This document shows positions 1-54,324 of a stretch of DNA of 64,000 bases, one piece after another. Positions within the stretch are counted from its first letter, which is position 1, and every line of letters starts with the position of its first letter. The position numbers and the translations under genes were made by a program. A model generated the notes under the pieces. That model saw nothing but the letters and a program-made list of their open reading frames with translations. It did no database searches and was not told the DNA's origin. The DNA lies in NCBI GenBank assembly GCA_000004695.1, contig CM000153.2, forward strand, positions 3,552,001 through 3,616,000, read 5' to 3'. The DNA is from Dictyostelium discoideum. Taxonomy: Eukaryota.

Positions 1-992
1 AAAAGATATAAAAATTTATTAAATCCATCTGAACTCAAACCTTCAGTTCATGCATTATTAAAATCACTTGATCCAATTTATAAGGTTACTCCAGAGGATT
101 TAAAATCTTTACCAATTTCAAATATTGATACTAGTAATGCTGTTATAATTGAAAAAGCATCAGAAATTGAAAATGGTGTTAAACTTTTATTAAATGGTAA
201 ATCTGTCGATCAAATAACTTTGGATGATGGTATTGTTTTAGGTTTTGATCTTGAATGGTCAGCTTTAGAAAGATATACAACTAAAACTAAAAAAGAAACA
301 AAAACTGCCCTCATTACATTAACAAATGGATGGTATGTATAATAATTAAAATTTTATATTATAATAAATAAACAATACTAATATTTTTAAAAATAATAAT
401 GATAATAAAAAATAATAGTGAAACTGTTTTATTTAGAGTGTGTCATACAGGTTTAGATGAAAATAGTGAATTAGGAAAATTATTAAAGAGTGGAGTTATT
501 ACAAAGACAGGTTTTGGTGCTGGTAAAGATGCAAATAAAATTTGTAAAGATTTTGGTTTTGAAGTATGTATTTTTATTATTTATTGGAGAAAAAAAAAAA
601 AAAAAAGATTATAATATATTAATGTATTATTATTTCCTCAAATGAAAATTTATAATTTTATTGAAATTGAAATTGGAATTTTTTTTTTTTTTTTTTATAA
701 TTAGGTAGATGGAATTTTTGATTTAAAATATACACCAAAGATTCTTGCATTATTCAAAAATAGAGCTGTTGAATATGTTACAGCTGGTTTATTTGGAGTA
801 AATATTAAAAGAAATTCAACTTTAATTTTATCAGCTTGGGGAACTTCACACCAATTAAAACCAAGACAAATTCATTCATCTGCATTATATACTATTTACA
901 GTCTAAAAACTTATTTCATGTTACCATCTTTAAAAGTTGATACAACTTTTATCGAAAAAGATACATTCATTCCATTTGCAAAACTTTATTAA
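1..992 (+). CDS. 3'-5' exonuclease (DnaQ-like, WRN-exo/EXD-type) domain protein, C-terminal part; 5' end lies outside the window. Exons about 1-332, 419-563 and 705-992, stop TAA 990-992.
   Basis: Frame 1 reads ...LDDGIVLGFDLEWSALERYTTKTKKETKTALITLTNG from base 1, containing the Exo I motif GFDxEW followed by a hydrophobic ALIxL segment as in WRN-exo/EXD2. A gtatgt donor at 333 and aatag acceptor at 417-418 split a codon (TG|T) and continue ETVLFRVCHTGLDENSELGKLLKSGVITKTGFGAGKDANKICKDFGFE. A gtatgt donor at 564 and ttag acceptor at 703-704 then give VDGIFDLKYTPKILALFKNRAVEYVTAGLFGVNIKRNSTLILSAWGTSHQLKPRQIHSSALYTIYSL...FAKLY*. ORF-track entry 399..614 is exon 2 read into intron 2. Confidence 0.55.
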
Positions 993-2544: not shown

Positions 2545-4771
2545 TTAAGTTACAACTCTCATTATACTAACAACGGGTTGATTAAGTACTTTTCTAATTG
2601 GTCCAAAAGCTGAAAAGAAAGAGAAAAACATTGAACAAATGAAAACTATTATAATTAATTGCCAAGGTAAAGTCATTGGAATTGGTAACATTGTAAATAA
2701 TTGTCTTTGAAGGATCATTGTGAAACCAACAGTTGAACCAATAAACATACCCAACATTGAGGAAGCCATAACCAATACGAAAGCTTCATAGACGTAAATT
2801 CTAATCATCCAAGATTTTGGTATTCCCAATGCACATAAAACACCAATTTCTTTAGTTTGTTCTAAAATATTTGAATATACAGAAGACATTAAAGAGAAGA
2901 AAGAGATGGTCATTGCTAAAACTGTAGTAAAACTGAAAAAGTATTGAATGATCACAGAGGCCGTTGCAAAAGGTTTAATCTTTTCATAGTAATCCAACAT
3001 ATCGAAATCCTCTCTAAGATTACCAATTAAAAAGCTATTTAAACGATTCTTTATTGATTCTACAGCATCTTTATCATCAGTATTCAATTTCAAAATCACT
3101 TGATTCATTGGAATTTCACGTACTGATGAGAAGATACTACTTGCATACGAGAGATAAGTTGGAAATGATACGATTGAATCTTGATTTGTAACTGATGGGA
3201 ATTTAGAGAATTTAAAAGATGGTGCGCTATCTAACATTGCCGATGGTTTAACTAAGTGTCTAGTGGAATTAACTGATGAAGCTTCACCAGATTTAATATT
3301 TAATTGTAATAGGAATGATTGATCAATTGAAGCACCAATAACATCGGTATACAATGAACCAATGATTATCTTTTGACCACTAGTAAATGAATAGATTTGC
3401 TCGGAAAGATATTGAATATCATTCAAACTATAATCAGGATCAGGAGCGATTGAGCTTGCCTTTAAGAATCCAGGTAAAGTAGTAGCGAATAAGTTTGGAG
3501 AAATCGCATACATATTGGTGCCATCACTATAGATATGACCAATGTTTGTAATTTGAGATTGTTGATATTGTTTAGTCATAATTGAGAAAGATGAAGACTC
3601 CCAAGCGTAATCTTCAATCTCTGGTTGATATTGTGAGAGGAATTGATCGATTAACAAAGTTGACTCTGGTTGAAAGAATGGTTCACTACTTTTCACACTT
3701 AGATAACTACCATAGCTTTGTTGAACTTGATAATTCATTGATGCCTGTTGCATAGAGTATGAAACATTGACAAAGATAATGAATGCCAATGAAACTGCAT
3801 ACATGATAGCGGTCTTTCTATTTCTAAGTTTATGAGCTATTAAATTCTTTATAACCAATGATTTGATAGCACGTTTCTCCCAAAAGAAGAATAGATTAAC
3901 TACAGCCCTCTCTAGAATCTGTTCAACATTTAATGCTAAACTAACCAACCCCAATAACATTGCAATCAACAACATGAAGAACATATTTAAAAGTAGTGTC
4001 AAATTGAATGAAAGCAACGACAATGGGAACACATAATAAATTCCAAAGCCAAACACAGACAACAATGAGCCAATCAATGCAACCGATGATGAGAAACTGT
4101 TATCTTCACTACGTTCAATTGAGATTTGTACAGCGGCAGTCTTTGAATGTTTCACATCTAAAGAGTCATGTAAATTCTTACCCAATGCATTACGAATTGG
4201 AAAGATTGCCGACGCTATTGGAATTATAATACCCAATGCCGATGCTAACAATATGGCTTCACCTGTTAATTTTGGTGGAATTGGTACGCCAGTAATTGAT
4301 TTGAAAATAGCAGAAACAATGAATCCAAATACTTGAGCAATTAATAAACCTAAACCCCAAGATGGTACACTATAGGAGAATGCTTTGAATAGCATCAATT
4401 GAATAATACCATTTCTTGTTGTACCAATCATTCTCATTACACCCATTTCAAAGGTTCTAGTCTCTACATCAATCATCAACAATGAATAAATCAATAGAAT
4501 CGATAAAAACAATAGAATGAATATGATTACATTCAAAATCAAACCTAAAAATAATGCTACATATCTATTCTTTGAAAGTTCACTCATCACTGGTAATTCT
4601 GATGAAAGTTCATTAAATCCAACTTTATATAAAATTTTATTTGAAAAATCTACAATCTTTTCTAAAATTACATCTTGATTTGAATTAATATATGGTGTTA
4701 ATCTTGATGGTGGTAAATTTATAATAACTTGTTTTGAATAATCATAAAAATTAATTTTTGAAATATAACTT

Positions 4772-4810
<39 letters not shown>

Positions 4811-5996
4811 AAAAATTAATATATATATATATAATTTTTCCCCGATTTTTTTTTAAAAAAAAAAAAAAACAATATTAAATAAACTTACTTTTTTGAATTA
4901 TAATTCATTTCTGGATCAAATTGTGTAATTAAAAATGGTAAAAATGTTGAATATTCAATGATTATGGAAGAACTTTGATCGGATGGGAACTTACCTTCAG
5001 AAGAAGAGAAAGTATCAGCAACAGTTGCTGTTGCATAAATTACGGGTATGGTTGAAGAGGTGATATTGGCATGAGTCCAAATTGATGATAGAAATGATCT
5101 AGTTGGAATACGAATGAATATTGTATCACCCTTTGAAATTGATAATTTATTTGCTAAATTCTCTTGAACGTAAACTGTACCCTGTGGTGGAGCATCCAAT
5201 TTCCAATCACGACCTAATCCCATCCTCTTTTCACGTGCAGTATCAATCACAAACATCGATGCTTTACTTGCTACTGAATTACTACAAACTGATTCGAAAC
5301 AGTATGGTTCACATTGATTTGGCTCATCATGATATTTCCAAAGATTATCATTTGGATTTGTGTTACCGTTTGGACACGACTTTGCACTAACCACACTAAC
5401 AGTCCCATCGACTCTTGGTGAATGGTAACTATCATCTACTTCTTCTAATTCATATTGATTATTATTATTATTATCATCAAAATAACTTCCATTTGGTTCT
5501 TTATATGTACCAGCTAATAACTCTGATAACATTGTATAATTTAATTGATCTGATAATGTCCATGAACCAGGTGTCAACACCATATCCATTTCACCAACAC
5601 TTGCTTCTGACAAACTTAGGAATACCACTGGTGTGTTGGTGATGATGGAAACACATAGTGACACTATAAACACTACCAAGAAGCATGCGGAAAATCCTAA
5701 CAAATAGGATAACTTATTACGTAGATTGATTCTTAATGTATGTGAAAAGAAATGTTTCCAATGGTAGAGTAATGTTCTAAACCAATTCACTATCTTCACT
5801 TTTACTGTATCACCATTTATTGCATTTGATATACCCTTGAATTTACCATAAGGTTTACTTGATATTTTCTTCTTAATTTTACCATTGTCATCATAATTAT
5901 CTTTATTTTTTAAAAATGTTTGTTCTTCTGAATTTTCTATAAATTCATCAAAACTATCGCTACTACTACTACTACCATTACTTTTATTTATTTTTA

Positions 5997-6036
<40 letters not shown>

Positions 6037-6120
6037 ATCTCTTGATTTTATAAAATCATCATCTTCTTCATCATCATTATTATTTATAGATTGATATTTA
6101 TTATTCCTTTTATTTGTCAT
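2545..6120 (-). CDS. MacB/FtsX-type permease-like polytopic membrane protein with two FtsX (DUF214) modules and no ABC ATPase domain; about 1100 aa. This is a divergent member of the tandem family, called here the second-half ABC-transporter permease-like protein. Exons about 6120-4889 and 4768-2545, with an intron about 4888-4769 (gtaagt...ag) that splits a codon (AA|G).
   Basis: The ORF-track pieces 4885..6120 and 2545..4590 are on the same strand. The upstream piece ends at a GTAAGT donor and the downstream exon actually starts at 4768 (KYISKINFYDYSKQVIINLPPSRL...VMSELSK...). The first module reads RNKLSYLLGFSACFLVVFIVSLCVSIITN followed by a large extracytoplasmic domain and then LLIYSLLMIDVETRTFEMGVMRMIGTTRNGIIQLMLFKAFSYSVPSWGLGLLIAQVFGFIVSAIF, a classical FtsX TM2-4 signature. 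The second module ends EQTKEIGVLCALGIPKSWMIRIYVYEAFVLVMASSMLGMFIGSTVGF...GPIRKVLNQPVVSIMRVVT*. Confidence 0.7.
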
Positions 6121-6717
6121 TATTTTTTGGTTTCTATTTTTTTGTTTCTTTTTTTAATAGTAATATATATACATATATAAAACTATTTTTTATTGTTTAT
6201 TTTAATCTTTTTTTATTTTTTTTAGGATTTTTGAAAAAATTTAAAAAAAAAAAAAAAAAAATTTAAAGATTATGTCAGTGAAATTTTGGTGGTGTTATTT
6301 GTATTTAATTAAAAAATTTGTGTGGTATAAATTCTGGAAAAAAAAAAAAAAAAATTAAAATAAAATTTAAAAAAATAATAATAAAAAAAAAAAAAAAAAC
6401 TAATAATATAAATGGGGTATATTAATAATTGTAACACTTTCAGATATGTAAAAAGTAATAACACTGAAAAAAAAAAAAAAAAAAAAAAAAATTAGGAAAA
6501 ATAAATTGAAAACTTAAAAAAAAAAAATAAAAAATAAAAAAATAAAAAAATAAAAAAAAATCTTTTAATTTTTTTAATTGTAACCATGATCCAATAATCT
6601 CTAAATTTTTTTTTTTTTTTTTTTTTTTTTGGTATCGTTTTCTAATTATTTGTTTTAGATGACCACCTGTCATTTCCTTCAGATTGCAATCAATAATTAA
6701 AATCAGATTATTAAAAA

Positions 6718-6786
6718 AAAAAAAATAAATAATATAAAATAAAATAAAATAAAATAAAATAAAATAAAATAAAATAAAATAAAATA
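6718..6786. repeat. (AAAAT)n microsatellite, about 13 units.
   Basis: aaaataaaataaaataaaat... read directly. Confidence 0.9.
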
Positions 6787-7538
6787 AAAACATCAAAAAA
6801 TAAAACTGAAAATAATTAAAATATTTTTTATATTTTTTTTTTTTTTTTTTTTATAAAATTGATAAACAATTTAATTAACAAACAATTTTTTTTTTTTTTA
6901 TTCACTTACAATTTTATTTTTGCACACCACTTTTTCTTTTTATTTTGGCCTAAAATTATAAAAAAAATATCTTTTTTAAAAAAGATTTTTACATTTTTTT
7001 TTTTATTTTTTTTTTCTTTTTTTTCTTTTTATTTTTTTATTTTTAATTTTTTTTTTTTCAATTCATTTCATTTCCATTATTTCTTTAAACTTATTTTTTT
7101 TTTAATATAACCCTTTTTATTAAATATTTGTAAACAATGAATCAATTAGGTATGTTTTAAGACTTTTATTTTTTTATTTATTTTTATTTTTATTTTTTTT
7201 TATTATCATTATTTTCTTTAAAATATTACTAACCATAAATTTATTTCTATAGGATCCGGACCAACAAAACAAGGAGTTGCAACAAATACAGGTTCAACTG
7301 GAACTACTAAAAATAATAGCAACCTTAGTGGAAAAGGTTGGGTTCTTTAGGTTTTTTGATGATCTTTTCTTTATTGTGAAATTACTTACCATCATCAATT
7401 TTTGTTGATTGATCAAAAAAAAAAAAAAAAAAAAAAAAAGTATGCAAATTACTTTTATAAATATATTTTTAGAATATTTCAAGTTTTCTAATCAAAACAT
7501 AGTTTTTTTTTTTTTGTATTTTAGAATTAATGTATAGA

Positions 7539-7593
<55 letters not shown>

Positions 7594-7920
7594 CCAATAA
7601 ATAACAGAACATTTCTAATTCATTATTGAAAAAAATATAAAAAAAGTAATCAAATGAATATAATATAAGGTATAATTTTAATATTAGTTTTAATCTTAAA
7701 TTTTTTTTTTTTCCAATTAATATTCACAATCAAATTTATATTTAAAAAATAAAAACAGTAAATTTGGAAACAAATCAAAAGAAATAAATTTGTTTTTTGT
7801 TTTTTTTTTAAATAGTTTTATTTTAAATAATAAAAATAATAAAATAAAAAAAAAGTAATAATTAAATCTTTCAGTTCTTTTATTTTACTTTTTATTTTAC
7901 TTTTTTTTTTTTAAAAAAAA

Positions 7921-10900
7921 TTAATCTTTTAAAACTGTTATGATTGATTGTTTTAATAAATGTCTAATTGGAGAAATTACAGAAATGATTGAGACAATTA
8001 AAGATGAAATAAAGAGTATAGGAATTAATTCCCATTGAATTGAAAATGGTATAATTTGTTGATCCATCATTGATTGTTTTAATAGAATAATATAGCTAAT
8101 GAAAAGACCAATAATAATACCAATTATACAACTACCAAATGAAAGTGTAAAAGCTTCGATAATATAGATTTTATAGATTTTAAAATTTGATAAACCAATT
8201 GATCTTAGAATACCAATTTCTTTTGATTGATTTTTAATACTTGTAAACATTGATGAAATTAATGAAAATGATGATATTATTATAGAGATTACTGTTGCGA
8301 AATCAAACAATAATGAATTTAATTTATCTGAACTGTTTGATGAATCTTTATATCTAATTATATATGGACTTTCAGAGTTTTTATTAAATAAACAATTTTT
8401 TGAAATTTTATATTGTAAAGAATCGATTTTATCGTCATCTAATGATTTTGGTTTAATTAAAATTAAATTAACTGGTATATTCCTAACTGAATCAATATTA
8501 CCACCTGATAATCCGACATATGCTGGAAAAGAAGTAATTACACTTTGAGTAAGATCTTCATCCGGAATTTCAGATACACTAAATGTACCTGCAGTTTTTA
8601 AATATGCTAATGGTTTCACTATATTTCTACCCATCCAGTTGAATGTTACATTATGTTTTTGACTTCGACCTGATGAATAATCTATTCTTCTATAGTTATT
8701 AATTTCAATATAATTTGATAATATAAATTCATCTGGTCCACCTTTTTCATCAAGATACATTAATTTCTTTTGAGATTGAGTTAATATTAATTTATTCATT
8801 GAATCTTTGCTATATAAAATCGTTGATAAATCAGTCATATCACCATTTTGATTAAAATCAACATCTTTATCAGTTTTTAAATTTTTTGAAACTGATGAAA
8901 CTTGAAAATAATCTTCCATTATTTCACTGAAATAAGTTGGGCCAACTGCATGTAATGATGATTTTAATGTTACACTTCTAGCAAAATCAGAAACATATGA
9001 TTTCTTATCATCGGGTTGAGAAAATTCACTAAATTTCATTGATCTTAATGAATAACTATCTAATTCATCATTATTTTCATCATCTAATATACGATCTAAA
9101 CATAGAGTTATATTTGATAAATCTTCTCTGGTGATAAAGGAACCAGTTTCAATCTTTAAAAGTGAACCAAACGATTGTTTCTCATTAGCATTTGCAGTTT
9201 CAACTTGAATTAAATATAAACAATTAATTATAATTATTAAAGATACTGAAACACCAAACATAAACATTGTACTTTTATTCTTTTTCTTGTGAGAAATTAA
9301 ATTTTTATATAAAATTATTCTGATTATATTTTTTGCAAAAGGATCTATTAAAGTAATAATGTAAACTAATGTTTTTGAAATGATTAAATGGAAATTCATC
9401 ATTAAGAAAATTGCTGATATTAAAACTAAAATTAACAATCCAAATAATAATGCTAATAATGAACTAAAATTACCAGATAATAATAATTTTGGTAATAAAA
9501 TACAACCAACTATACCTAAAGCGCTTAATGACAAACCAATCCATGATAAATACTTTCTATATTCTGAATCAGTTGAATCTTTATCAATTGTTGTAATTTG
9601 ATGTGATGATGATATATTTGATCTACTAGTATCCAATTGCTCACCTAATGAAAAACTTAATGCTTTTCTAATTGGTAATATCAATGATACCATTGGTATT
9701 AGAAAACCAAGTAAAATTGAATAAACAATTGAATCTACTGTTAAATAATTTGAAATTTCATCTGAATTTGTAAAACGTTTTAATTGATCTATAATTATAA
9801 ATAAAAAGATTTGAGAAATTATTAAACCTAATATAATTGATGGGACTGTGAATATTATTGTTTTTGAAACTATTAGCTCGATGATGAAACTAAATTTAGC
9901 ACCTAACATTCTAAATACACCGTTATTAAATGTCATTGAATCCACATCAATCATTAATGTTGTATAAATTAAAAGAATTGATAATAAAAGGAATACAAAA
10001 ACTATTAAATTTAATAATTGACCTAAATTACTTGAAACTTCGTTACTCTTGTATAATTCAGTCATTATTGGTGTTGAAATATCAACTCTACCAACACCAA
10101 TTTTGTAAACTAATTTCGAGGCAACTTTATTTACTCTTTGTAAAGTTTTATCTAAATCTGTACCATAATACATTGGCAATCTGGGGGATGGAAATTTCAT
10201 AACTATATTTTCAACATATTCTTTTATATTTTTATTTTTCATTAAATCTACATTCCATGTTGGATTTACTTGTTCAACCATTGAATCATAGAATGAGTCA
10301 ATATCTATTAAAACTGATGGTATTATCTCACCCAATTCGAAACCTAGTTCAAATGGATTCTCTGTATTATTGAAAAATCCATTAACTTTTAATTTTGTTA
10401 TTATATATGGTGATTTTTCAATTTGAGTTGTTGAAATCATTGAATCTGTTAATAATGTTGATAATAATCTAACTGCTGGTACTATTATAAAAATTTCATC
10501 ACCAACATTTGCATGGATTGATTGAGCAAGTGATTCTATAATTAAACATGTTCCTTTTGGTTGTGATCCATAACCAAATGTTGATTTTATACCCATATCA
10601 TTCTCTTTTTTAAAATCTAGTAATTGGAAACCCATAAATACATGATTTCCTTCACCACTACATCTATTAATAAAACAAGTGCTCTCTGTGCAATTTAAAC
10701 CACTCCCATTTGAAAAGTATCTTGATTCAATATTATCTTGTACAACTTTTTCACAATAACTTACTGGATATCCATATGTATCTATAAAATTAAATCTTGG
10801 TGAATTATTTTTAAAAAAACTATTTTTATTACTAATACCACTACCACTATATAATCCATGGGTATTCTTTTCATCAGCTCCAACTCTATTATCATCTTTT

Positions 10901-11643
10901 ATTTCTCTAGTTGTATCATTTAAAATTTGATCAAATAATGTATAATTTAATCTTATAGTAAAACCTTTTTCTAAATCTATTGAAAGTTGTTGTTTTCCTG
11001 ATATTATTAAATCTATATGATTAGCATCAGAATCTGCTTTACTTAAAAATATTAATGATATATTTGATAATACTGATAAACCAGTTGCAACTAAAATTAC
11101 TACTAAAAAACATGATATAAAACCAATACTATAATTCAATTTACTCCTTTTAATACCATTTATTGAATATTTAATTATTGAAAACCATTCTCCAATAGTT
11201 GTATTAAATCCAATATTTGTTAAATTTATTTGAATCTTTTTTAAAATAAATCCAAAATATTTTAAAAATTCTAAACTTCCAAAAATTAATATTATAAAAA
11301 ATTCCAAAAAAACAAAAATTCCTTCAATTATTATTTTAAGTTTATTGAAAAAATAATTCTCTTTTTTAATATTATTATTATTATTATTATTTATATTATC
11401 ATCATAATAATAAATATTGTCACCTTGACAATCATTTTCAAGTGATCCTTTTAAAATTGATAATTCAATTGGGTCACATTCACCAACACTCTCTCTCCAT
11501 TTATTATAAAATTTTTTATTAATTAAAATTGGATCATTCTCATTCCTATTATTTATAGAACTCTTTAAAATTGAACTATTTTCATTGATGATACTATAAT
11601 CACCATCATCATTATCATTCCCACTTGATTCATAATTATACAT
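7921..11643 (-). CDS. MacB/FtsX-type double-permease-like membrane protein, paralog A; 1240 aa, apparently a single exon.
   Basis: A full-length ORF. The first module, GIKRSKLNYSIGFISCFLVVILVATGLSVLSNISLIFLSKADSDANHIDLI, follows the MacB TM1 pattern (R.K..L..LGI.IGVA.V....G......S.I.S.G.N.I.I). It is followed by a ~400 aa Cys-containing extracytoplasmic domain and the FtsX core LLIYTTLMIDVDSMTFNNGVFRMLGAKFSFIIELIVSKTIIFTVPSIILGLIISQIF. The second module has a TM, a large domain and NQSKEIGILRSIGLSNFKIYKIYIIEAFTLSFGSCIIGIIIGLFISY. Confidence 0.8.
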   Translation of the reverse strand: MYNYESSGNDNDDGDYSIINENSSILKSSINNRNENDPILINKKFYNKWRESVGECDPIELSILKGSLENDCQGDNIYYYDDNINNNNNNNIKKENYFFNKLKIIIEGIFVFLEFFIILIFGSLEFLKYFGFILKKIQINLTNIGFNTTIGEWFSIIKYSINGIKRSKLNYSIGFISCFLVVILVATGLSVLSNISLIFLSKADSDANHIDLIISGKQQLSIDLEKGFTIRLNYTLFDQILNDTTREIKDDNRVGADEKNTHGLYSGSGISNKNSFFKNNSPRFNFIDTYGYPVSYCEKVVQDNIESRYFSNGSGLNCTESTCFINRCSGEGNHVFMGFQLLDFKKENDMGIKSTFGYGSQPKGTCLIIESLAQSIHANVGDEIFIIVPAVRLLSTLLTDSMISTTQIEKSPYIITKLKVNGFFNNTENPFELGFELGEIIPSVLIDIDSFYDSMVEQVNPTWNVDLMKNKNIKEYVENIVMKFPSPRLPMYYGTDLDKTLQRVNKVASKLVYKIGVGRVDISTPIMTELYKSNEVSSNLGQLLNLIVFVFLLLSILLIYTTLMIDVDSMTFNNGVFRMLGAKFSFIIELIVSKTIIFTVPSIILGLIISQIFLFIIIDQLKRFTNSDEISNYLTVDSIVYSILLGFLIPMVSLILPIRKALSFSLGEQLDTSRSNISSSHQITTIDKDSTDSEYRKYLSWIGLSLSALGIVGCILLPKLLLSGNFSSLLALLFGLLILVLISAIFLMMNFHLIISKTLVYIITLIDPFAKNIIRIILYKNLISHKKKNKSTMFMFGVSVSLIIIINCLYLIQVETANANEKQSFGSLLKIETGSFITREDLSNITLCLDRILDDENNDELDSYSLRSMKFSEFSQPDDKKSYVSDFARSVTLKSSLHAVGPTYFSEIMEDYFQVSSVSKNLKTDKDVDFNQNGDMTDLSTILYSKDSMNKLILTQSQKKLMYLDEKGGPDEFILSNYIEINNYRRIDYSSGRSQKHNVTFNWMGRNIVKPLAYLKTAGTFSVSEIPDEDLTQSVITSFPAYVGLSGGNIDSVRNIPVNLILIKPKSLDDDKIDSLQYKISKNCLFNKNSESPYIIRYKDSSNSSDKLNSLLFDFATVISIIISSFSLISSMFTSIKNQSKEIGILRSIGLSNFKIYKIYIIEAFTLSFGSCIIGIIIGLFISYIILLKQSMMDQQIIPFSIQWELIPILFISSLIVSIISVISPIRHLLKQSIITVLKD

Positions 11644-11651
11644 TTATCTGT

Positions 11652-11685
<34 letters not shown>

Positions 11686-11709
11686 GAAAATGGTTAGCAC
11701 TTCTTTCCG

Positions 11710-11743
<34 letters not shown>

Positions 11744-12506
11744 ACTGATTATTTTTTGACTTTTTTTTAAATTCTTTTATTTTTAATTCCCTAATTTTTT
11801 TTTTTTCTTTTATTTTTTTTTTTTCTATTTTTTTTTTTTTACTTTCTGATTATATTTTTTTTTTACTTTTTTTTTTTTTTACTTTCCGATTATTTTTTTT
11901 TTTTAAAAAAAAAAATAATTTATTGGTCTTTCAATTTTTTTTAAAAAGTAAAGAAAAAAAAAAAAAAAATAAGTGTAAAATTTAAAGTTTTACAAATGAT
12001 TGCAAATGTGTCTAGAAAATAAAAAAAAGAAAAAAAAAAAAAAAACGAAAATTAGTTTTGAAATAATCTTGTTTTTTAGGGATTTTCTTGAAAACACAAA
12101 AAACTATTAATCCCGAACCTTTAAAATTTTGAAAAATTAATTATTTTTTTTTTTTTTACTTTTATAATTATTGCTCCATTTTAAATCGATATTTTTATAT
12201 TTTTAGAAAAAAAAAAAAAAAATAAAAATAAAAGAATTAATAATGTAAAGAAAAAGCCAATTATAGATCAAGAGATTTGAGGGGAATGTTTTTTTTTTTT
12301 ATTATAATCATTTTTTTTATAAATTTCCTATTTTCTTGAAAAAAAAAAACTGCAAGGCACTGTAAAGAAAATTTTTTGGTCTGAGGAATAGTGTTTTATT
12401 TTTTTAATTTGGATTTTAATTAAAAAAAAATAAAAATAAAAATAAAAAAAATAATAAAAGCCTGGAAGAATTTGGACAATCACTTTGTGGTTCCAGAAAA
12501 AACTAT

Positions 12507-12567
12507 ATCATAAATTATAAAAAAAACCTCAGAAGATACAAGGAAATTCTTTGAAGATCCAATCACT

Positions 12568-12608
<41 letters not shown>

Positions 12609-12728
12609 ATAATTATCCATAAAATACAATAAAACAAATAAAATATTTTTATTCTTAATTTTTTGAAAATCTTCAAGGAATTTCCTTGTATCTTCTCAGA
12701 GGTTCTTTTTATAATTTATAATATAGTT
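12507..12728. repeat. Inverted repeat with ~55-bp arms (about 12507-12563 and 12672-12728) separated by a ~105-bp A-rich spacer, lying 25-240 bp 3' of the stop codon of permease paralog B.
   Basis: Left arm tatcataaattataaaaaaaacctcagaagatacaaggaaattctttgaagat. Reverse complement of right arm ataaattataaaaagaacctctgagaagatacaaggaaattccttgaagat. There are 3-4 mismatches over about 50 bp. Confidence 0.75.
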
Positions 12729-12750
12729 TTTTTTTTTTTTTTTAAAGAAA

Positions 12751-15700
12751 TTAATCTTTTAAAACTGTAATAATTGGTTGTTTTAATAAATGTCTAATTG
12801 GAGAAAATACAGAAATGATTGAGACAATTAAAGATGAAATGAAGAGTATAGGAATTAATTCCCATTGAATTGAAAATGGTATAATTTGTTGATTCATAAC
12901 TGATTGTTCCAATAGAATTGTATAGCTAATGAAAAGACCAATAATAATACCAATTATACAACTACCAAATGAAAGTGTAAAAGCTTCGATAATATAGATT
13001 TTATAGATTTTAAAATTTGATAAACCAATTGATCTTAGAATACCAATTTCTTTTGATTGATTTTTAATACTTGTAAACATTGATGAAATTAATGAAAATG
13101 ATGATATAATCATTGAGAGTACAGTTGCAAAATCAAAGAATAATGAATTTAATTTATCTGAACTATTTGATGAATCTTTATATCTAATTATATATGGACT
13201 TTCAGAGTTTTTATTAAATAAACAAGTTTCTGAAATTTTATATTGTAATGAATCAATTAAATCGTCATCTAATGATTTTGGTTTTAATAAAATTACGCTA
13301 ACTGGTATATTCCTAACTGAATCAATATTACCACCTGATAATCCGACATATGCTGGAAAAGAAGTAATTACACTTTGAGTAAGATCTTCATCCGGAATTT
13401 CAGATACACTAAATGTACCTGCAGTTTTTAAATATGCTAATGGTTTCATTACATTTCGACCAATCCAATTGAAGGTTACATTTTGTTGTTGATTTTTACC
13501 AGATGGATCAATTTTTGTATAATTATTAATTTCAATATAATTTGATAAAAGAAATTCATCTGGACCACCTTTTTCATCAAGATACATTAATTTCTTTTGA
13601 GATTGAGTTAATATTAATTTATTCATTGAATCTTTACTATATAAAATCGTTGATAAATCAGTCATATCACCATTTTGATTAAAATCAACATCTTTATCAG
13701 TTTTTAAATTTTTTGAAACTGATGAAACTTGAAAATAATCTTCCATTAATTCACTGAAATAAGTTGGACCAACTGCCCATAGTGATGATTTTAAAGTTTT
13801 AGTTTTAGCAAGATCAGAAACAATTGATTTCTTATCAGGTTGAGAAAATTCACTAAATTCCATTGACCTTAATGAATAACTATCCAAACCATTATTTTCA
13901 TCATCGATTATTCGATCTAAACATTGAGTTATATTTGATAAATCTTCCCTTTTTATAAAGGTACTGGTTTCAATCTTTAAAAGTGAACCAAAGTATTGTT
14001 TATTTGAAGCATTTGAAATTTCAACTTGAACTAAAAATAAACAATTAATTATAATTATTAAAGATACTGAAACACCAAACATAAACATTGTACTTTTATT
14101 CTTTTTCTTGTGAGAAATTAAATTTTTATATAAAATTATTCTAATAATATTTTTTGCAAAAGGATCTATTAAAGTAATAAGGTAAACTAATGTTTTTGAA
14201 ATGATTAAATGGAAATTCATCATTAAGAAAATTGCTGATATTAAAACTAAAATTAACAATCCAAATAATAATGCTAATAATGAACTAAAATTACCAGATA
14301 ATAATAATTTTGGTAATAAAAAACAACCAACTATACCTAAGGCGCTTAATGATAAACCAATCAATGATACAAACTTTCTATATTCTGAATCAGTTGAATC
14401 TTTATCAATTGTTGTAATTTGATGTGATGATGATATATTTGATCTACTAGTATCCAATTGCTCACCTAATGAAAAACTTAATGCTTTTCTAATTGGTAAT
14501 ATCAATGATACCATTGGTATTAGAAAACCAAGTAAAATTGAATAAACAATTGAATCTACTGTTAAATAATTTGAAATTTCATCTGAATTTGTAAAACGTT
14601 TTAATTGATCTATAATTATAAATAAAAAGATTTGAGAAATTATTAAACCTAATATAATTGATGGGACTGTGAATATTATTGTTTTTGAAACTATTAGCTC
14701 GATGATGAAACTAAATTTAGCACCTAACATTCTAAATACACCGTTATTAAATGTCATTGAATCCACATCAATCATTAATGTTGTATAAATTAAAAGAATT
14801 GATAATAAAAGGAATACAAAAACTATTAAATTTAATAATTGACCTAAATTACTTGAAACTTCGTTACTCTTGTATAATTCAGTCATTACTGGTGTTGAAA
14901 TATCAACTCTACCAACACCAATTTTGTAAATTAATTTTGAAGTAAATTCACTAACTCTTTGTAAAGTTTTATCTAAATCTGTACCATAATACATTGATAA
15001 TCTTGGTGATGGAAATTTCATAACTATATATTCGACATATTCTTTAATATTTCTATTTTTCATTAAATCTACATTCCATGATGGATTTACTTGTTCAACC
15101 ATTGAATCATAGAATGAGTCAATATCTATTAATATCGATGGTATTGTTTCACCCAATTCGAAACCTAGTTCATATGGATTCTCTGTATTATTGAAAAATC
15201 CATTAACTTTTAATTTTGTTATTATATATGGTGATTTTTCAATTTGAGTTGTTGAAATCATTGAATCTGTTAATAATGTTGATAATAATTCCACTGCTGG
15301 TACTATTATAAAAATTTCATCACCAATCTTTAATTCTGTTGCTTTAGCCAATAATTCTACCATTAAACATGTACCCTTTGGTTGTGATCCATAACCAAAT
15401 GTTGATTTTATACCCATATCATTCTCTTTTTTAAAATCTAGTAATTGGAAACCCATATATACATGTTCTCCATCACCACCGCATCTATTAATAAAACAAG
15501 TACTCTCTGTGCAATTTAAATCACTACCATTTGAAAAGTACCTTGCTTCAATATTATTTTCAACAATGTTTTCACAATAATTTACGGGATATCCATATGT
15601 ATCTATCATATGAAATCTTGGTGAATTATTTTTAAAATTTTTTTTTTTACTTCCACCACTACTTGAACTCTGGATTATAGTTTCACTAGCTCCAGCACTA

Positions 15701-16383
15701 TTTTCACCTTTTATTTCTATATTCTCTATTTTTTCAAAATTTAAAATTGCATTATTTAAAATTTTATCAAATAATGTATAATTTAATCTTATAGTAAAAC
15801 CTTTATCTAAATCTATTGACTGATGTTGTTTTCCTGATATTATTAAATCTATATGATTAGCATCAGAATCTGCTTTACTTAAAAATATTAATGATATATT
15901 TGATAATACTGATAAACCAGTTGCAACTAAAATTACTACTAAAAAACATGATATAAAACCAATACTATAATTTAATTTACTCCTTTTAATACCATTTATT
16001 GAATATTTAATTATTGAAAACCATTCTTCAATAATTGTATTAAATCCAATATTTTTTAAATTTATTTTAATTTTTTTTAAAATTAATCCAAAAAATTTAA
16101 ATTCTTTTTTTAAAAATTCCAAAGCTCCAATAATTATTGAGGTTAATAATTTAAAAAAATATAAAATTCCTTTGATTATTATTTTAAATTTATTATTTTT
16201 TTTAAAATGATAATCGTTACTGTCACAATCTTCATCAAATGATGTTAAAATTGCATAATTTTTAGTGATGGAATTATCGTCATCATCTCCATCCTCATCT
16301 TCATTACAGTTGTCATTTTCACTTGGTCCATAAAAATTATGCATTTCTATTCTTTTTTTTATTTTAAAATTATTGGTTAGCAT
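12751..16383 (-). CDS. MacB/FtsX-type double-permease-like membrane protein, paralog B; 1210 aa. Its N-terminal ~90 residues are unrelated to those of A and C.
   Basis: Very high identity to 7921-11643 and 17277-21032 across most of its length, with identical stretches such as KSPYIITKLKVNGFFNNTENP and LLIYTTLMIDVDSMTFNNGVFRMLGAKFSF. The N-terminus MLTNNFKIKKRIEMHNFYGPSEND... is different, and the first M could be preceded by a missed 5' exon. Confidence 0.8.
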   Translation of the reverse strand: MLTNNFKIKKRIEMHNFYGPSENDNCNEDEDGDDDDNSITKNYAILTSFDEDCDSNDYHFKKNNKFKIIIKGILYFFKLLTSIIIGALEFLKKEFKFFGLILKKIKINLKNIGFNTIIEEWFSIIKYSINGIKRSKLNYSIGFISCFLVVILVATGLSVLSNISLIFLSKADSDANHIDLIISGKQHQSIDLDKGFTIRLNYTLFDKILNNAILNFEKIENIEIKGENSAGASETIIQSSSSGGSKKKNFKNNSPRFHMIDTYGYPVNYCENIVENNIEARYFSNGSDLNCTESTCFINRCGGDGEHVYMGFQLLDFKKENDMGIKSTFGYGSQPKGTCLMVELLAKATELKIGDEIFIIVPAVELLSTLLTDSMISTTQIEKSPYIITKLKVNGFFNNTENPYELGFELGETIPSILIDIDSFYDSMVEQVNPSWNVDLMKNRNIKEYVEYIVMKFPSPRLSMYYGTDLDKTLQRVSEFTSKLIYKIGVGRVDISTPVMTELYKSNEVSSNLGQLLNLIVFVFLLLSILLIYTTLMIDVDSMTFNNGVFRMLGAKFSFIIELIVSKTIIFTVPSIILGLIISQIFLFIIIDQLKRFTNSDEISNYLTVDSIVYSILLGFLIPMVSLILPIRKALSFSLGEQLDTSRSNISSSHQITTIDKDSTDSEYRKFVSLIGLSLSALGIVGCFLLPKLLLSGNFSSLLALLFGLLILVLISAIFLMMNFHLIISKTLVYLITLIDPFAKNIIRIILYKNLISHKKKNKSTMFMFGVSVSLIIIINCLFLVQVEISNASNKQYFGSLLKIETSTFIKREDLSNITQCLDRIIDDENNGLDSYSLRSMEFSEFSQPDKKSIVSDLAKTKTLKSSLWAVGPTYFSELMEDYFQVSSVSKNLKTDKDVDFNQNGDMTDLSTILYSKDSMNKLILTQSQKKLMYLDEKGGPDEFLLSNYIEINNYTKIDPSGKNQQQNVTFNWIGRNVMKPLAYLKTAGTFSVSEIPDEDLTQSVITSFPAYVGLSGGNIDSVRNIPVSVILLKPKSLDDDLIDSLQYKISETCLFNKNSESPYIIRYKDSSNSSDKLNSLFFDFATVLSMIISSFSLISSMFTSIKNQSKEIGILRSIGLSNFKIYKIYIIEAFTLSFGSCIIGIIIGLFISYTILLEQSVMNQQIIPFSIQWELIPILFISSLIVSIISVFSPIRHLLKQPIITVLKD

Positions 16384-16794
16384 TTTTTTTTTTTTCTTAT
16401 CTAAAACTTAGATGTTATTTTTATTTTTATTTTTATTTTTATTTTGAAAGAAAATAATAATTTATAAAGTCTTTTCTTTTTTTTTTTATAATTAAAAAAA
16501 GAAAATAAATACAGCTTAAATTTTCATTTTATGTTGCTGACATTGCTTCATTGTAAACCTATCTTCATTTTCAAAAAAAGAAAAGGTGGCACTTCAAATA
16601 TTTTATTTTATTATAAAGAAAAAGATAAAAAACTATTGTCTGTCTGGCTTTTTTTAAGAACTAAGAAAAGTTTTTTGAAAATTTGGTTGATCTAGCCTTT
16701 TTTTTTTTTGTTATTTTTTGGTTTTTATGATAACGATCGAGAAAAAAAAAGTTGTTTATTTTCTAAAAAAAAAAAAAAAAACCAGGTGAGTCAC

Positions 16795-16895
16795 AAGAAA
16801 ATTATGTTTGTGTGAAGGGAGTCCCTAAGAAAATAAAAGTTAAAAAAAAGAGGCGACAAACCCACCAGCGCGGCACAAAATTACTTTTCACTTTA
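16795..16895. repeat. Copy 1 of a ~90-bp dispersed repeat of unknown family (GC-richer than its surroundings).
   Basis: ...gggagtccctaagaaaataaaag..aagaggcgacaaacccaccagcgcggcacaaaattacttttcac... aligns with 57957-58075 (...ggggagtcacatggaaaataaaa..aagaggcaacaaacccaacgctgcataaaatttcttttcac...). Confidence 0.55.
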
Positions 16896-17135
16896 GTTTT
16901 TTTGAAATTTGCATTTTTTTTTGATAAAGATTCAGAAAAAAAAAAATGTTTTTAAAAAAAAAAATGAAATGAAAATAAAAAAAATATATAAAAGCCTGGT
17001 AGAATTTGTATAATCAATAAAAGAAGTTCAGTTACATATAATGAAAAAATTATTTTTAAAACTTTTTACTTTTATTTTTAATTTTATTATTATTTTGATT
17101 TTAAAAAAAAAAAATTATTATCTGATTGTCTTAGG

Positions 17136-17171
<36 letters not shown>

Positions 17172-17276
17172 ATCACCCTTGTTATGATTGATTTCGATTC
17201 GATTCGATTTGATTTAATTTGATATGATTTATTATTATATTATTACTATTTTTATTATTTTTATTTTAAAATAAAA

Positions 17277-20200
17277 TTAATCTTTTAAAACTGTAATAAT
17301 TGGTTTCTTTAATAAATGTCTAATTGGGGAAACTACAGAAATGATTGAGACAATTAAAGATGAAATGAAGAGTATAGGAATTAATTCCCATTGAATTGAA
17401 AATGGTATAATTTGTTGATTCATAACTGATTGTTCTAATAGAATTGTATAGCTAATGAAAAGACCAATAATAATACCAATTATACAACTACCAAATGAAA
17501 GTGTAAAAGCTTCAAAAATATAGATTTTATAGATTTTAAAATTTGATAGACCAATTGATCTTAGAATACCAATTTCTTTTGATTGATTTTTAATATTTGT
17601 AAACATTGATGAAATTAATGAAAATGATGATATAATCATTGAGAGTACTGTTGCAAAATCAAAGAATAATGAATTTAATTTATCTGAACTGTTTGATGAA
17701 TCTTTATATCTAATTATATAAGGACCTGTTGATTTTAGATTAGATAAACATTTTTGACTAATTTTTAATCTTAATGAATCAATTAAATCATAATCTAATG
17801 ATTTTGGTTTAATTAAAATTACACTAACTGGTATATTCCTAACCGAGTCGATATTACCACCTGATAACCCAACATATGCTGGAAATGAGGCTATTACACT
17901 TTGAGTTGCACCTTTATCTGGAATCTCAGATACACTAAATGTACCTGCAGTTTTTAAATATGCTAATGGTTTCATTAAATAACGACCCATCCAATTTAAT
18001 GTTACATTTTGTTGTTGATTTTTGCCAGATGGATCAATTTTTGTATAATTATTAATTTCAATATAATTTGATAATAAATATTCATCACTACCACCTTCTT
18101 GATCAAGATACAATAATTTCTTTTGAGATTGAGTTAATATTAATTTATTCATTGAATCTTTACTATATAAAATCGTTGATAAATCAGTCATATCACCATT
18201 TTGATTAAAATCAACATCTTTATCAGTTTTTAAATTTTCTGAAACTGATGAAACTTGAAAATAATCTTCCATTAATTCACTGAAATAAGTTGGACCAACT
18301 GCAAATAATGATGATTTTAAAATTCTAGTTCTACCAAGATCAGAAACCGTTGATTTCTTATTATCAGGTTGAGAAAACTCACTAAACTCCATTGATCTTA
18401 ATGAATAACTATCTAAACCATTATTATCATCCATTAAACCATCTAAACATTGGGTAATATGTGATAAATCTTCTCTAAGTAAAAATGTTTCTGTTTCAAT
18501 CTTTAAAAGTGAACCATAGTATTGTTTTCTAGAAGCATTTGCAGTTTCAACTTGAACTAAATATAAACAACTAATTGTAATAATTAAAGATACAGAAATA
18601 CCAAACATAAACATTGTACCTTTATTCTTTTTCTTGTGAGAAATTAAATTTTTATATAAAATTCTTCTAATAATATATTTTGCACCAGGATCGATTAAAG
18701 TAATAAGGTAAACTAATGTTTTTGAAATGATTAAATGGAAATTCATCATTAAGAAAATTGCTGATATTAAAACTAAAATTAACAATCCAAATAATAATGC
18801 TAATAATGAACTGACATCACCGGATAATAATAATTTTGGTAATAAAAAACATACCACTATACCAAAAGCACTAATTGATAAACCAATCAATGATACAGAC
18901 TTTTTAAATTCTGCATCTTTTGAACCTTTATCAATTGTTGTAATTTGATGTGATGATATTTTTGATCTACTAGTATCCAATTGTTGATTTAATGAAAAAC
19001 TTAATGCTTTTCTAATTGGTAATATCAATGATACCATTGGTATTAGAAAACCAAACAAAATTGAAAATAGAATTGAATTTACTGTTAAATACTTTGAAAT
19101 ATCTGCTGAATTTGATATACTCTTTAATTGATCTACGACTATAACTAAAAAGATTTGTGAAATTATTAAACCTAATATAATTGATGGTATTGTGAAAATT
19201 ATTGTTTTTGAAACTATTAGCTCGATGATGAAACTAAATTTAGCACCTAACATTCTAAATACACCGTTATTAAATGTCATTGAATCCACATCAATCATTA
19301 ATGTTGTATAAATTAAAAGAATTGATAATAAAAGGAATACAAAAACTATAATATTTAATAATTGACCTAAATTATTTGAAACATCTTTGCTCTTGTATAA
19401 TTCAGTCATTACTGGTGTTGAAATATCAACTCTACCAACACCAATTTTGTAAATTAATTTTGAGCAATAATCACCCACACGTTGTAAAGTTTTATCTAAA
19501 TCTGTACCATAATACATTGATAATCTTGGTGATGGAAATTTCATAACTATATATTCGACATATTCTTTTAAATTTCTATTTTTCATTAAATCTACATTCC
19601 ATGTTGGATTTACTTGTTCAACCATTGAATCATAGAATGAGTCAATATCAATTAATATAGATGGTATTGTTTCACCCAATTCAAAACCTAATTCATAACC
19701 TAATTCGTATGGATTCTCTGTATTATTGAAAAATCCATTAACTTTTAATTTTGTTATTATATATGGTGATTTTTCAATTTGAGTTGTTGAAATCATTGAA
19801 TCTGTTAATAAAGTTGATAATAATTTAACTGCTGGTACTTTTAAAAAAATTTCATCACCAATCTTTAATTCTATTCTTTTAGCCAATGATTCTATCATTA
19901 AACATGTACCCTTTGGTTGTGATCCATAACCAAATGTTGATTTTATACCCATATCATTCTCTTTTTTAAAATCTAGTAATTGGAAACCCATATATACATG
20001 TTCTCCATCACCACCACATCTATTAATAAAACAAGTACTCTCTGTGCAATTTAAATCACTACCATTTGAAAAGTACCTTGCTTCAATATTATTTTCAACA
20101 ATGTTTTCACAATAATTTACGGGATATCCAAATGCATCTATCATATGAAATCTTGGTGAATTATAATCAAAATTATTAAAACCACTACTATCACCACCAA

Positions 20201-20685
20201 TAAATAAACTATTGAAACTATTAGCTTCATTCAATTCTATTAATTTTTCAAAATTTAAAGTTGCATCATTTAAAAGTTGATCAATTAATGTATAATTTAA
20301 TCTGACATCAATAATTTCACCTAAATCTATTGATTGTTGTTTGCCTGATATTATTAAATCAATACCATAGGCATCAGAATCTGCTTTACTTAAAAATATT
20401 AATGATATATTTGATAATACTGATAAACCAGTTGCAACTAAAATTACTACTAAAAAACATGATATAAAACCAATACTATAATTCAATTTACTCCTTTTAA
20501 TACCATTTATTGAATATTTAATTATTGAAAACCATTCTTCAGTAATTTTAAAAAATCCAATATTTCTTAAAATTAATTTAATCTTTTTTAAAATTATTTT
20601 AATCCTTTTTAAAATTGATTTAAAAAATTCTAAAATTATTATTATTATTTTTATTATTATTATTTTAAATTTTTTTATATATAAA

Positions 20686-20716
<31 letters not shown>

Positions 20717-21032
20717 CATCTTCATCATTATTATTATTATTATTATCATTTGATGATTTTTTAAAATCTGATAATTCAACTTGACTATATTCACCAACAC
20801 TATCTCTCCAATTATTATAATATTTTTTGTCACTAATTAAAATTGTATCATTTTCATTATTTTCACTCCTTTTCATTGCACTTGTTAATATTGAATTATT
20901 ATTGTTGAGGTTGTTTTTATCCTCATCGTCATCATCGTCGTTATTATTATTGTTATTGTTTTCTTCATAATTATTTACACTATCTTCATTATCGTTAGCA
21001 CTTATTCCAAAATAATTATCATTTTGAACCAT
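17277..21032 (-). CDS. MacB/FtsX-type double-permease-like membrane protein, paralog C; 1251 aa.
   Basis: A full-length ORF with the same architecture and high identity to A and B. The N-terminal acidic, Asn-rich cytosolic region shares KKYYNNWRDSVGE with paralog A (KKFYNKWRESVGE). Confidence 0.8.
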
Positions 21033-21038
21033 TCCTAT

Positions 21039-21078
<40 letters not shown>

Positions 21079-22095
21079 CAAGGTTATTATTTATTTTTTT
21101 TACAACAAGGTTATTTTTTTATTTTTATTTTTTATTTTATTAAAATTTTTTTAATATTTCTTACCTATCTTTTTAATATTTTTTTTTTTTTTTTTTTACA
21201 ACAAGGTAATTTTTTTTTTTTTTTTTTTTTTTTTTTTCAAATAAATTAAAATTTAAAATGATTATTAGAATATTATTTTAAAAAAAGATATATAAAAAAA
21301 AAAAAAATTTAAAAATAAATTTCAATAAAAAATATCAAAAAAAAAAAAAAATAGAATAATTTTAAATAATTGAAAGAAAATGTGTGAAGGGGTTTTTTTT
21401 CTTTTTAATTAAATAAAAAGTTAAAAAGAAAAAAAATAAATATTAGAAAAAAAAAAAAAAAACGGTGATTGTGAGGTTTTACAAAAAAAAGCAAAACGAA
21501 AATTAAATTAAAAAAATAAAAAAAAAAATTAAAGTCGAAATTTATTTTCACATAACCTTATTTCCAGGGTTCTTTGAGAACAAATTAAAAAAAACAAATC
21601 GGCTTGTAACCCCGTAATACACTCGCACTGTTTCGGTCTAAAAATGTCAAAAAAAAAAAAAAAAAAAAAAAAATTAAAAAAATATTAAAAAAAAAAAATA
21701 TTGAAAAAAAAAATTTGTTTTGAACTTTTACACCAATTGCGTCATTTTAAATCGATTTCCAGTTATAATTTTTTTTTTTTTTAATCTTTGGAATTGTTTA
21801 TCATAAGTAATAAAAAAAAATTATGAAGAATAAATAAAAGAAAAAAGAAAAAAATTTCTAATTCATTTTTTTTTTTTTTTTTTTTATTTATTTTTAATAT
21901 GGAGCACCAAAAACGATATAAAATATAAAAAAAAGTGAATTTAACCATTCCTTTTTTTTTTTTTTAATTTTCAAAGAAATTATTTAAGATTATAATTTTT
22001 TTTTTTTTTATTTTAAATTCACAACAACTAACAAACCTTTTTTTTTCGGGGATACAATTTTTTTTTTTTTATTTACAAATTTGGTTGTTGAATTC

Positions 22096-23038: not shown

Positions 23039-23091
23039 GTTGACCTCACAGCAATTAACTAGTTTTAAAGAAACCCCCTTGTCAACTGTAC
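23039..23091 (+). ncRNA. Candidate Class I non-coding RNA, about 50 nt.
   Basis: GTTGAC-CTCACAGCAA-ttaactagttttaaagaaaccccctt-GTCAAC-tgtac followed by a T15 run. The 5' GTTGAC and 3' GTCAAC are perfectly complementary, forming a terminal stem. Immediately 3' of the 5' stem arm, CCTCACAGCAA differs at one position from the conserved Class I 11-nt motif CCTTACAGCAA. The length lies within the 42-65 nt range. The locus is intergenic and GC-elevated. Confidence 0.45.
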
Positions 23092-25439: not shown

Positions 25440-29748
<4,309 letters not shown>

Positions 29749-52797: not shown

Positions 52798-53126
52798 ATT
52801 TTTATTTATAAAAAAAAAAAAAAAAAAAAAAAAAAGTGTAAATAATAAAACTATATAAAAATTAAAAACCATTTTTTATAATTATAGTTTGATTTAATTA
52901 AATCAACTTGGTGGTTTAAGTATATTATAAAAATAGAAAAATTAAAATTATTTTTTTTTTTTTCCAAATCTTTTCATTTTCATTTTTTTTTTTTTTCATT
53001 TTTTTTTTTTTTTTTTTTTTTTTCAATTTTTATTTTATAATTAATTTCACCCACCAAACACTTCAACATATAATTATATATATATATAATATTTATTTAT
53101 AATTGTATATATATATAATAATAATA

Positions 53127-54231: not shown

Positions 54232-54324
<93 letters not shown>

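Follow-up and report, generated by a model that had tools for sequence, protein, structure and literature searches.

Background

Interlocus gene conversion and unequal crossing-over act on tandem gene families, and the resulting concerted evolution is known from such textbook cases as the globin and opsin arrays of primates. Duplication, recombination and gene conversion also shape the tgrB1/tgrC1 allorecognition locus of Dictyostelium (PMC12745789). Here we describe an array of neighbouring genes for FtsX-domain proteins on chromosome 4 of Dictyostelium discoideum AX4, within a window of 64,000 nucleotides (GenBank assembly GCA_000004695.1, contig CM000153.2, positions 3,552,001 to 3,616,000 of the forward strand), to which the AX4 coordinates below refer. 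All genes of the array lie on the minus strand; the window has a G+C content of ~22%, and its open reading frames (ORFs) are N-rich. Three of the genes, A, B and C, had been taken in a first-pass annotation for products of a very recent triplication. Comparison with related genomes makes it highly probable that they form an old tandem array dominated by orthology and patched by interlocus conversion, with unequal crossing-over also at work. The dating is thereby corrected, as the high identity of A, B and C comes from conversion and not from youth; with conversion at the locus, divergence between paralogs is no clock here.

The array and the comparison genomes

The three ORFs follow one another in the same orientation, their starts lying 4740 and 4649 bp apart. 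First in transcription order is copy C (DDB_G0285669; 17277-21032, minus strand), whose ORF of 1251 aa exactly matches XP_638206.1. The middle gene is copy B (DDB_G0285667; 12751-16383, minus strand), with an ORF of 1210 aa that is 100% identical over the 1197 aa of the annotated protein, and the third is copy A (DDB_G0285665; 7921-11643, minus strand), an ORF of 1240 aa exactly matching XP_638204.1. Each encodes two Pfam FtsX (PF02687) stretches (105-113 bits, the cut-off being 25.5). C is the most conservative copy, with a ratio of nonsynonymous (dN) to synonymous (dS) divergence from its orthologs of 0.09-0.15, and B has the highest ratio among the three, 0.31. Paralog D, the last gene of the array (2545-6120, minus strand), lies 1.8 kb downstream of A and shares ~28% amino-acid identity with it. 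It is split into two ORFs (4885-6120 and 2545-4590), which are presumably exons on either side of a short intron; a tblastn search with A matches 5781-2557 at 28% identity, and the 681-aa ORF itself carries two Pfam FtsX domains. The array comprises four FtsX genes in the order C, B, A and an anciently diverged D.

Five assemblies from a 2025 study based on Nanopore and Illumina reads (PMC12745789) were used for comparison. L001 and L004 represent two diverged isolates of D. discoideum, L002 and L003 are assigned to ‘D. cf. discoideum’ and represent two possible cryptic species, and L005 is D. citrinum. Orthologs of A, B and C (hereafter a, b and c) were found by position in the four discoideum-clade assemblies, and an ortholog of D, a gene of ~1150 aa, occupies the same position in L001-L004. 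In L002, L003 and L004 all three copies and D lie between the same neighbours as in AX4.

Gene conversion among A, B and C

Identity among the copies is patchy. Over the codon-aligned coding sequence (CDS) it amounts to 92.4% for A-B, 89.9% for B-C and 87.3% for A-C (from codon column 190 on, 93.7, 92.1 and 89.4%, respectively), with 81-85% identity of amino acids, and BLASTN high-scoring segment pairs between the copies run over 3.5-4.2 kb at 84-92%. These values do not sustain the earlier description of the copies as near-identical over about 3.4 kb. The peptide SPYIITKLKVNGFFNNTENP, quoted in its support, does occur in A, B and C. The first FtsX core, also said to be identical as a whole, is so between A and B, where 516 bp match at the nucleotide level, and not in C, which shows up to 20 differences per 150 positions in places. 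Ectodomains diverge by 13-19%, and ectodomain and N-terminal blocks taken together by 13-30%.

The 516-bp stretch is the longest exact repeat (9552-10067 in A and 14373-14888 in B, minus strand). It corresponds to A CDS 1577-2092, or residues ~526-697, and covers transmembrane segments (TM) 2-4 of the first FtsX domain. Low divergence between A and B extends 3' of it, as delimited by mismatch positions and exact blocks, through 9216-9551 in A and 14037-14372 in B (minus strand), and the whole tract (A CDS 1577-2428) holds 9 mismatches in 852 bp. Its edges are sharp, with 8 mismatches in 23 bp upstream (A CDS 1512-1534) and 18 in 89 bp downstream. A second tract joins B (15361-15595; B CDS 789-1023) with C (19896-20130), both on the minus strand, and has a single mismatch in 235 bp. 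Across a 150-bp window around it B and C differ at one position, against eight between B and its L004 ortholog (FIW_b) and six between C and FIW_c. Around TM1, finally, a block on the minus strand (10988-11191 in A) is nearly identical in all three copies: 11024-11191 of A equals 20371-20538 of C, and 10988-11136 of A equals 15824-15972 of B, both exactly. Here, window 451-600 contains 1-2 mismatches between paralogs versus 3-6 to the L004 orthologs.

A Sawyer-type permutation test, conditioned on variable sites and run with 10,000 permutations, gave P<1e-4 for the longest A-B run (40 variable sites, the 516 bp), P=2e-4 for B-C (12 sites, with a 114-bp core) and P=7e-4 for A-C (7 sites). In the tree of the A-B tract, AX4_A is joined with AX4_B at 100% bootstrap and, in L003, FIZ_a with FIZ_b at 98%; such within-genome clades in AX4 and L003 imply that conversion took place independently in different lineages. 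Interlocus gene conversion among A, B and C is strongly supported, and the suggestion of ongoing gene conversion made in the first-pass annotation is borne out by the mosaic identity, the synonymous homogenisation confined to tracts, the conflict between block trees and the quartet patterns given below.

Age and history of the array

Over the whole unit, the AX4 paralogs are not closer to each other than to the copies of related genomes; orthologs are closer both overall and in unconverted blocks. Uncorrected distances to orthologs are 3.9-8.3% for A-a, 4.6-9.0% for B-b and 3.3-5.6% for C-c, compared with 7.7, 10.4 and 12.3% for A-B, B-C and A-C within AX4. A neighbour-joining tree of A CDS 2401-2700, in the block of the second ectodomain (ECD2), groups the copies by position, with 96% bootstrap for the a clade and 88% for c together with CIT_1, the first of the D. 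citrinum copies CIT_1 to CIT_3. Quartet sites between AX4 and L004 divide, for A/B, into 157 that support orthology, 30 that support concerted evolution and 4 in the control (third) topology; the corresponding counts are 240, 20 and 0 for B/C and 320, 13 and 4 for A/C. The concerted A/B sites are clustered, and their excess over control sites (30 vs 4) has a one-sided binomial probability of ~3e-6. The concerted share grows with divergence, to 63 of 154 sites against L002. Since orthology dominates the comparison of copies, the array is older than the radiation of the discoideum clade.

The separation of C from A and B very probably goes back further, beyond the split from D. citrinum. Quartets with this species contain 69 sites at which C pairs with CIT_1 and A with CIT_2, versus 10 control sites, and the 69 are clustered in blocks. 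The N-terminal types also match: C and CIT_1 share MVxxDxYFxxSGNDNEDSVNN, and A, B and CIT_2/3 share MYN[YF].... The second and third D. citrinum copies (L005 15053-18714 and 21944-23735) are only 5.6% apart, their N-terminal poly-Asn runs exceed 60 N and copy 2 is frameshifted, which suggests that the copies were homogenised or duplicated separately in this lineage. Poly-N expansion was also seen in the c copy of L003.

The following history would account for these patterns. C-type and A/B-type copies would have existed before D. discoideum and D. citrinum separated, and the A/B duplication, with a deletion of ~40 codons from B, would have preceded the radiation of the discoideum clade. As the sequence patterns show directly, short stretches have since passed between the copies by interlocus (ectopic) conversion. 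In the AX4 lineage the latest such events are an A-B tract of ~0.5-0.85 kb in the transmembrane core of the first FtsX domain, a B-C tract of ~0.24 kb within ectodomain 1, and a TM1 block homogenised across A, B and C. Conversion holds synonymous divergence between paralogs low, and the amino-acid differences that persist lie in the N-terminus and both ectodomains. Unequal crossing-over has removed one copy in one strain by way of a C::B fusion.

Several points weigh against this history. An unlikely alternative places the duplication that separated C from A/B after the split from D. citrinum, with a conservative C and with A and B evolving fast at the protein level, so that CIT_1 would look C-like. 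It fits the nearly equal dS of CIT_1 to A, B and C (0.352, 0.347 and 0.325) beside unequal dN (0.129, 0.105 and 0.073), and third codon positions lend weak support to C/CIT_1 orthology (14 sites vs 8 control sites); the age before D. citrinum therefore rests mainly on nonsynonymous sites and N-terminal architecture. It does not fit the 69 versus 10 block-clustered quartet sites, the type-by-type agreement of N-terminal architectures or the 88% bootstrap for c with CIT_1 in the ECD2 block, and equal dS is also what conversion after speciation would yield. Dating and counting of conversion events are further limited by a sample of one genome per lineage. The direction of the A-B conversion is blurred: at sites diagnostic for a-type and b-type the states are mixed, mostly a-type, and the site sets are confounded by private changes of the reference strains. 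A role of selection on ectodomain differences, discussed in the next section, is suggested by dN/dS contrasts. As to function, an AlphaFold2 model of B, for which the alignment had 15 rows, proved unusable (mean predicted local distance difference test score of 36, predicted template modelling score of 0.26).

Because orthologs of A, B and C are 3.5-4.6% apart between strains, hyper-polymorphism like that of the tgr genes was considered. It was rejected: the flanking genes of AX4 differ from those of L004 and L001 by ~3.5-4%, just as much as the three copies do, so the locus is not hyper-polymorphic, and the D. discoideum isolates are described as genetically diverged (PMC12745789).

Conversion or constraint

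Old duplicates that never underwent conversion, their mosaic being due to uneven purifying selection, offer a very unlikely explanation of the locus. The transmembrane/FtsX cores are indeed the most similar blocks, the low-complexity N-terminus and the ectodomains are the least similar, and dN between orthologs reaches its minimum in the FtsX blocks, all of which constraint could produce. Synonymous sites, however, are homogenised too. By the Nei-Gojobori method, dS between A and B is 0.000 in the first FtsX block (FtsX1; 130 codons), 0.026 in TM1, 0.138 in the first ectodomain (ECD1), 0.175 in ECD2 and 0.29 in the N-terminus, whereas orthologs differ by 0.035-0.084 in FtsX1, and constraint alone therefore cannot explain the A-B identity. 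With 0 differences in 516, A and B of AX4 are closer to each other in the tract than either is to its ortholog, and the tree flips there in AX4 and in L003. The 30:4 ratio of concerted to control sites and their clustering point the same way, and the permutation test conditions on variable sites. Divergence is thus strongly non-uniform (A-B dS from 0 to 0.29 by region), where the first-pass annotation had regarded uniform divergence including synonymous sites as the mark of old duplicates under strong constraint.

Between paralogs dN/dS is ~0.55 versus 0.09-0.31 between orthologs; amino-acid differences between the copies have thus been retained disproportionately. This contrast suggests that the ectodomain differences are kept by selection, or that loss of homology blocks conversion there.

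The 5' end of B and the spacers

Homology between A and C covers 11980-7875 in A and 21314-17232 in C (84.2% over 4167 bp in a BLAST alignment). It includes the 5' CDS and ~280-340 bp upstream: the upstream flank of A (11644-11980, minus strand) is homologous to that of C (21033-21314) with a local-alignment z of 13.8, and B has no counterpart. This shared flank is probably duplicated promoter sequence. On the 3' side homology stops 20-48 bp past the stop codons.

B loses BLAST homology to both A and C upstream of 16194-16197, ~190 nt into its ORF, and its specific 5' coding end (16195-16383, minus strand) is not alignable by BLAST to either. The block KK(F/Y)YNxWR(E/D)SVGE is confined to A (11479-11517) and C (20790-20828), as had been noted from the sequence. 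The first ~90 codons of B are nevertheless not unrelated to those of A and C, as had been claimed. Colinear with A and C, its N-terminus still has M-x-N-[FY]-Y-G-P-S-E-N-D-N, an acidic run and ILTS, and a further block colinear with A/C, D-N-I-Y-x-Y-D-D, is seen in the b copy of L002; what B lacks is ~40 codons that hold the KKFYNxWRxSVGE block. Residual similarity of the B and A/C 5' ends is marginal at the DNA level (z 1.5-2.5), which makes the earlier claim understandable.

The B-type N-terminus is also old, being shared with the b orthologs of three other genomes (FIW_b of L004, FIY_b of L002 and, in shortened form, FIZ_b of L003). D. citrinum copies 2 and 3 retain the KKFYNxWRxSVGE block. 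The 5' end of B looks like the outcome of an old internal deletion of ~40 codons followed by divergence, and not like a junction left by the triplication. Unequal crossing-over with breakpoints in the 5' coding region, earlier proposed as its cause, is at odds with the observation that B matches neither A nor C there and that the b orthologs share this end. As to the start of the gene, the mechanical ORF of B begins at 16383 and the annotated protein at an internal Met at 16344, 13 codons downstream. The annotated start is probably right, since the L004 and L002 orthologs begin at that position (MHNYYG and MYNYYG).

Between the genes, the AT-rich spacers are unalignable by filtered BLAST and MAFFT apart from one clear shared piece, a 29-nt conserved patch at 12454-12482 with its twin at 16988-17016 (minus strand), which lie ~290 nt downstream of the stop codons of B and C, respectively. 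The patch is a remnant of the duplicated 3' flank. An exact pattern search of the other loci did not recover it; aligning the orthologous spacers brought out diverged versions in L004 and L002. Without low-complexity filtering, BLASTN between spacers returned A/T-run noise only. The first-pass annotation was right that the spacers share patches only; the two strings it quoted exist, at 12456 and 16990, each one base from where it had placed them.

The B-C spacer, otherwise of ~13% GC, also contains a GC-rich island (16780-16901) that is 90% conserved in L004. It matches another intergenic site, 57985-58046, with 80% identity over 65 nt, and both carry a CAAACCCA-like motif, which we take to resemble the upstream element of Dictyostelium small-RNA genes. 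Rfam returned no family for the island, and an E-value search of the B-C spacer gave a chance match only.

Unequal crossing-over and decay of the middle copy

Only two copies precede D in L001. The first of these (FIR_p) is c-type over its 5' ~750-800 nt and b-type thereafter, as judged from 139 diagnostic sites, just as expected for the product of a misaligned exchange between C and B. Of the unequal crossing-over invoked earlier, the process itself does act on the array, with a C::B fusion and loss of a copy in L001; the origin that it was to give to the 5' end of B in AX4 does not stand.

The middle copy carries many frameshifts in L001 (4988-8768, the fusion), L002 (~5400-8957) and L003 (5277-8718), with deletions that include one of 77 bp and one of 29 bp, and in these same assemblies the a and c copies are intact. 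It is thus a pseudogene in three of five lineages of the discoideum clade, and DDB_G0285667 (B) is the least constrained copy. We tentatively consider a balance in which frequent conversion homogenises the cores, selection keeps the ectodomains paralog-specific (three extracellular specificities) and a dispensable B stays intact in AX4 only through patching by its neighbours; this is possible, though doubtful. If true, a class of duplicated FtsX proteins that is protist-wide and ATPase-less would offer a natural case of ‘gene conversion rescue’.

That the triplication is very recent, with all differences including the 5' end of B representing duplication breakpoints, is now barely tenable. Long identical stretches such as the 516 bp of A-B speak for it, as do the L001 breakpoint of unequal crossing-over, which falls in the 5' third of the CDS, and the gene-body dS between paralogs, which at 0.105-0.175 is about the same as that between AX4 and isolate orthologs (0.10-0.12). 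Such low values are what repeated resetting of synonymous divergence by conversion would produce; between C and CIT_1 dS is 0.325, well above that of the paralogs. Against a recent origin stand the positional orthologs in four genomes, which cluster by position in unconverted blocks, a B-type N-terminus common to lineages up to dS ~0.2 from AX4, spacers that are unalignable save for one 29-nt patch and an A-B dS that varies from 0 to 0.29. Orthologs are 3.3-9% apart as compared with 7.7-12.3% for paralogs, the separation of C from A/B is shared with D. citrinum, and the dominance of orthology by itself refutes the claim.

An assembly artefact, with three copies mis-assembled or a repeat collapsed or expanded, has a negligible probability: tandem 4.6-kb repeats of ~90% identity in a genome of 22% GC are hard to assemble, but the copies are 8-12% different and have distinct spacers and so are not confusable, three other assemblies have the same three-copy layout and neighbours, and an independent assembly from Nanopore and Illumina reads (PMC12745789; locus-tag prefix ACTFIT), probably of the laboratory strain AX2, encodes the same copies, with identical A and C proteins and a B identical apart from a gene-model gap. 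The long-read validation of the three copies that the first-pass annotation had proposed is thus available and supports them.

Protein family

A Kyte-Doolittle scan of A, B and C fits two modules, each consisting of one TM, a large loop and three TMs, with linker helices between them, after a low-complexity N-terminal region. By homology the proteins may be read as duplicated, permease-like members of the MacB/FtsX type, with ~10-11 hydrophobic segments and a pair of large extracytoplasmic domains that contain cysteines. They resemble the type VII permeases of the MacB/LolCE/FtsX kind, above all in their duplicated 10-TM form (BceB, ADOP), in carrying two FtsX domains and in a hydropathy of one TM, a large loop and three TMs that occurs twice, with linker TMs; they differ in being eukaryotic and ~1200 aa long and in their low-complexity N-terminal extension. 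Matches to the sequences of the YtrF, LolF, MacB, BceB and LolE structures are limited to the C-terminal FtsX three-helix bundle. The Pfam scan gave no match to MacB_PCD (PF12704) in the ectodomains, and no bacterial family was matched among the NCBIfam families of MacB, LolCE, ADOP and BceB (22-31 bits vs cut-offs of 250-966). Among the larger ORFs scanned in the window none encodes an ATP-binding cassette (ABC) ATPase; a partner encoded elsewhere is possible.

An exhaustive HMMER search recovered 251 family representatives at E<1e-30. The best matches have 25-33% identity over ~1000-1100 residues, most of their length, and are of similar length to A, B and C. Ten relatives that were looked up include proteins of Polysphondylium violaceum, Willaertia magna, Anaeramoeba ignava, Paratrimastix, Paraphysoderma and Paraphelidium; annotated as ‘ABC3 transporter permease C-terminal domain-containing’, they are uncharacterised and, unlike the A/B/C array, single representatives. 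From these matches, A, B and C belong to a widespread and uncharacterised eukaryotic family found in many protists. A word-index protein search, which also missed paralog D, returned members of the A/B/C subgroup itself from the discoideum and citrinum clades alone. Literature searches with the three gene identifiers, and with Dictyostelium and FtsX, found nothing relevant.

Neighbouring genes

The neighbours of the array are ordinary eukaryotic genes. Among them is the gene for a talin-like I/LWEQ protein (59827-62073, plus strand), which accounts for a GC peak of 39.5% at 60-62 kb. Others encode a GSAP-16 domain protein (26419-29748, plus strand), a Nop-domain protein (30649-31854) and a Y_phosphatase2 protein (53103-54965). 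Upstream of the array, an intergenic Rfam match to the Dictyostelium Class I RNA (RF01414) was recorded at 23039-23088 (plus strand), with 42.3 bits against a gathering score of 41.5.

Comparison with known systems

The practical value of these observations is small. Functional work on the FtsX family in Dictyostelium would have to allow for three partly redundant, recombining copies and a distant fourth. The array is an ordinary old tandem family under partial concerted evolution; the phenomenon is a textbook one, and this instance and its protein family are undescribed. Like tgrB1 and tgrC1, A, B and C are membrane-protein genes of the same genomes subject to duplication, recombination and conversion. 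The tgrBC locus, in contrast, is hyper-polymorphic with unalignable swaps, whereas A, B and C diverge between strains by 3.5-4.6%, on a par with their flanking genes, and synteny is conserved. With the textbook families of concerted evolution the array has in common neighbours in the same orientation, mosaic tracts with sharp edges, homogenised synonymous sites, ‘islands’ of orthology, a copy-number variant in the form of a fusion gene and a pseudogenised member. From these families it does not differ in kind; conversion is partial (157:30 in favour of orthology), and its tracts are concentrated in the transmembrane cores.

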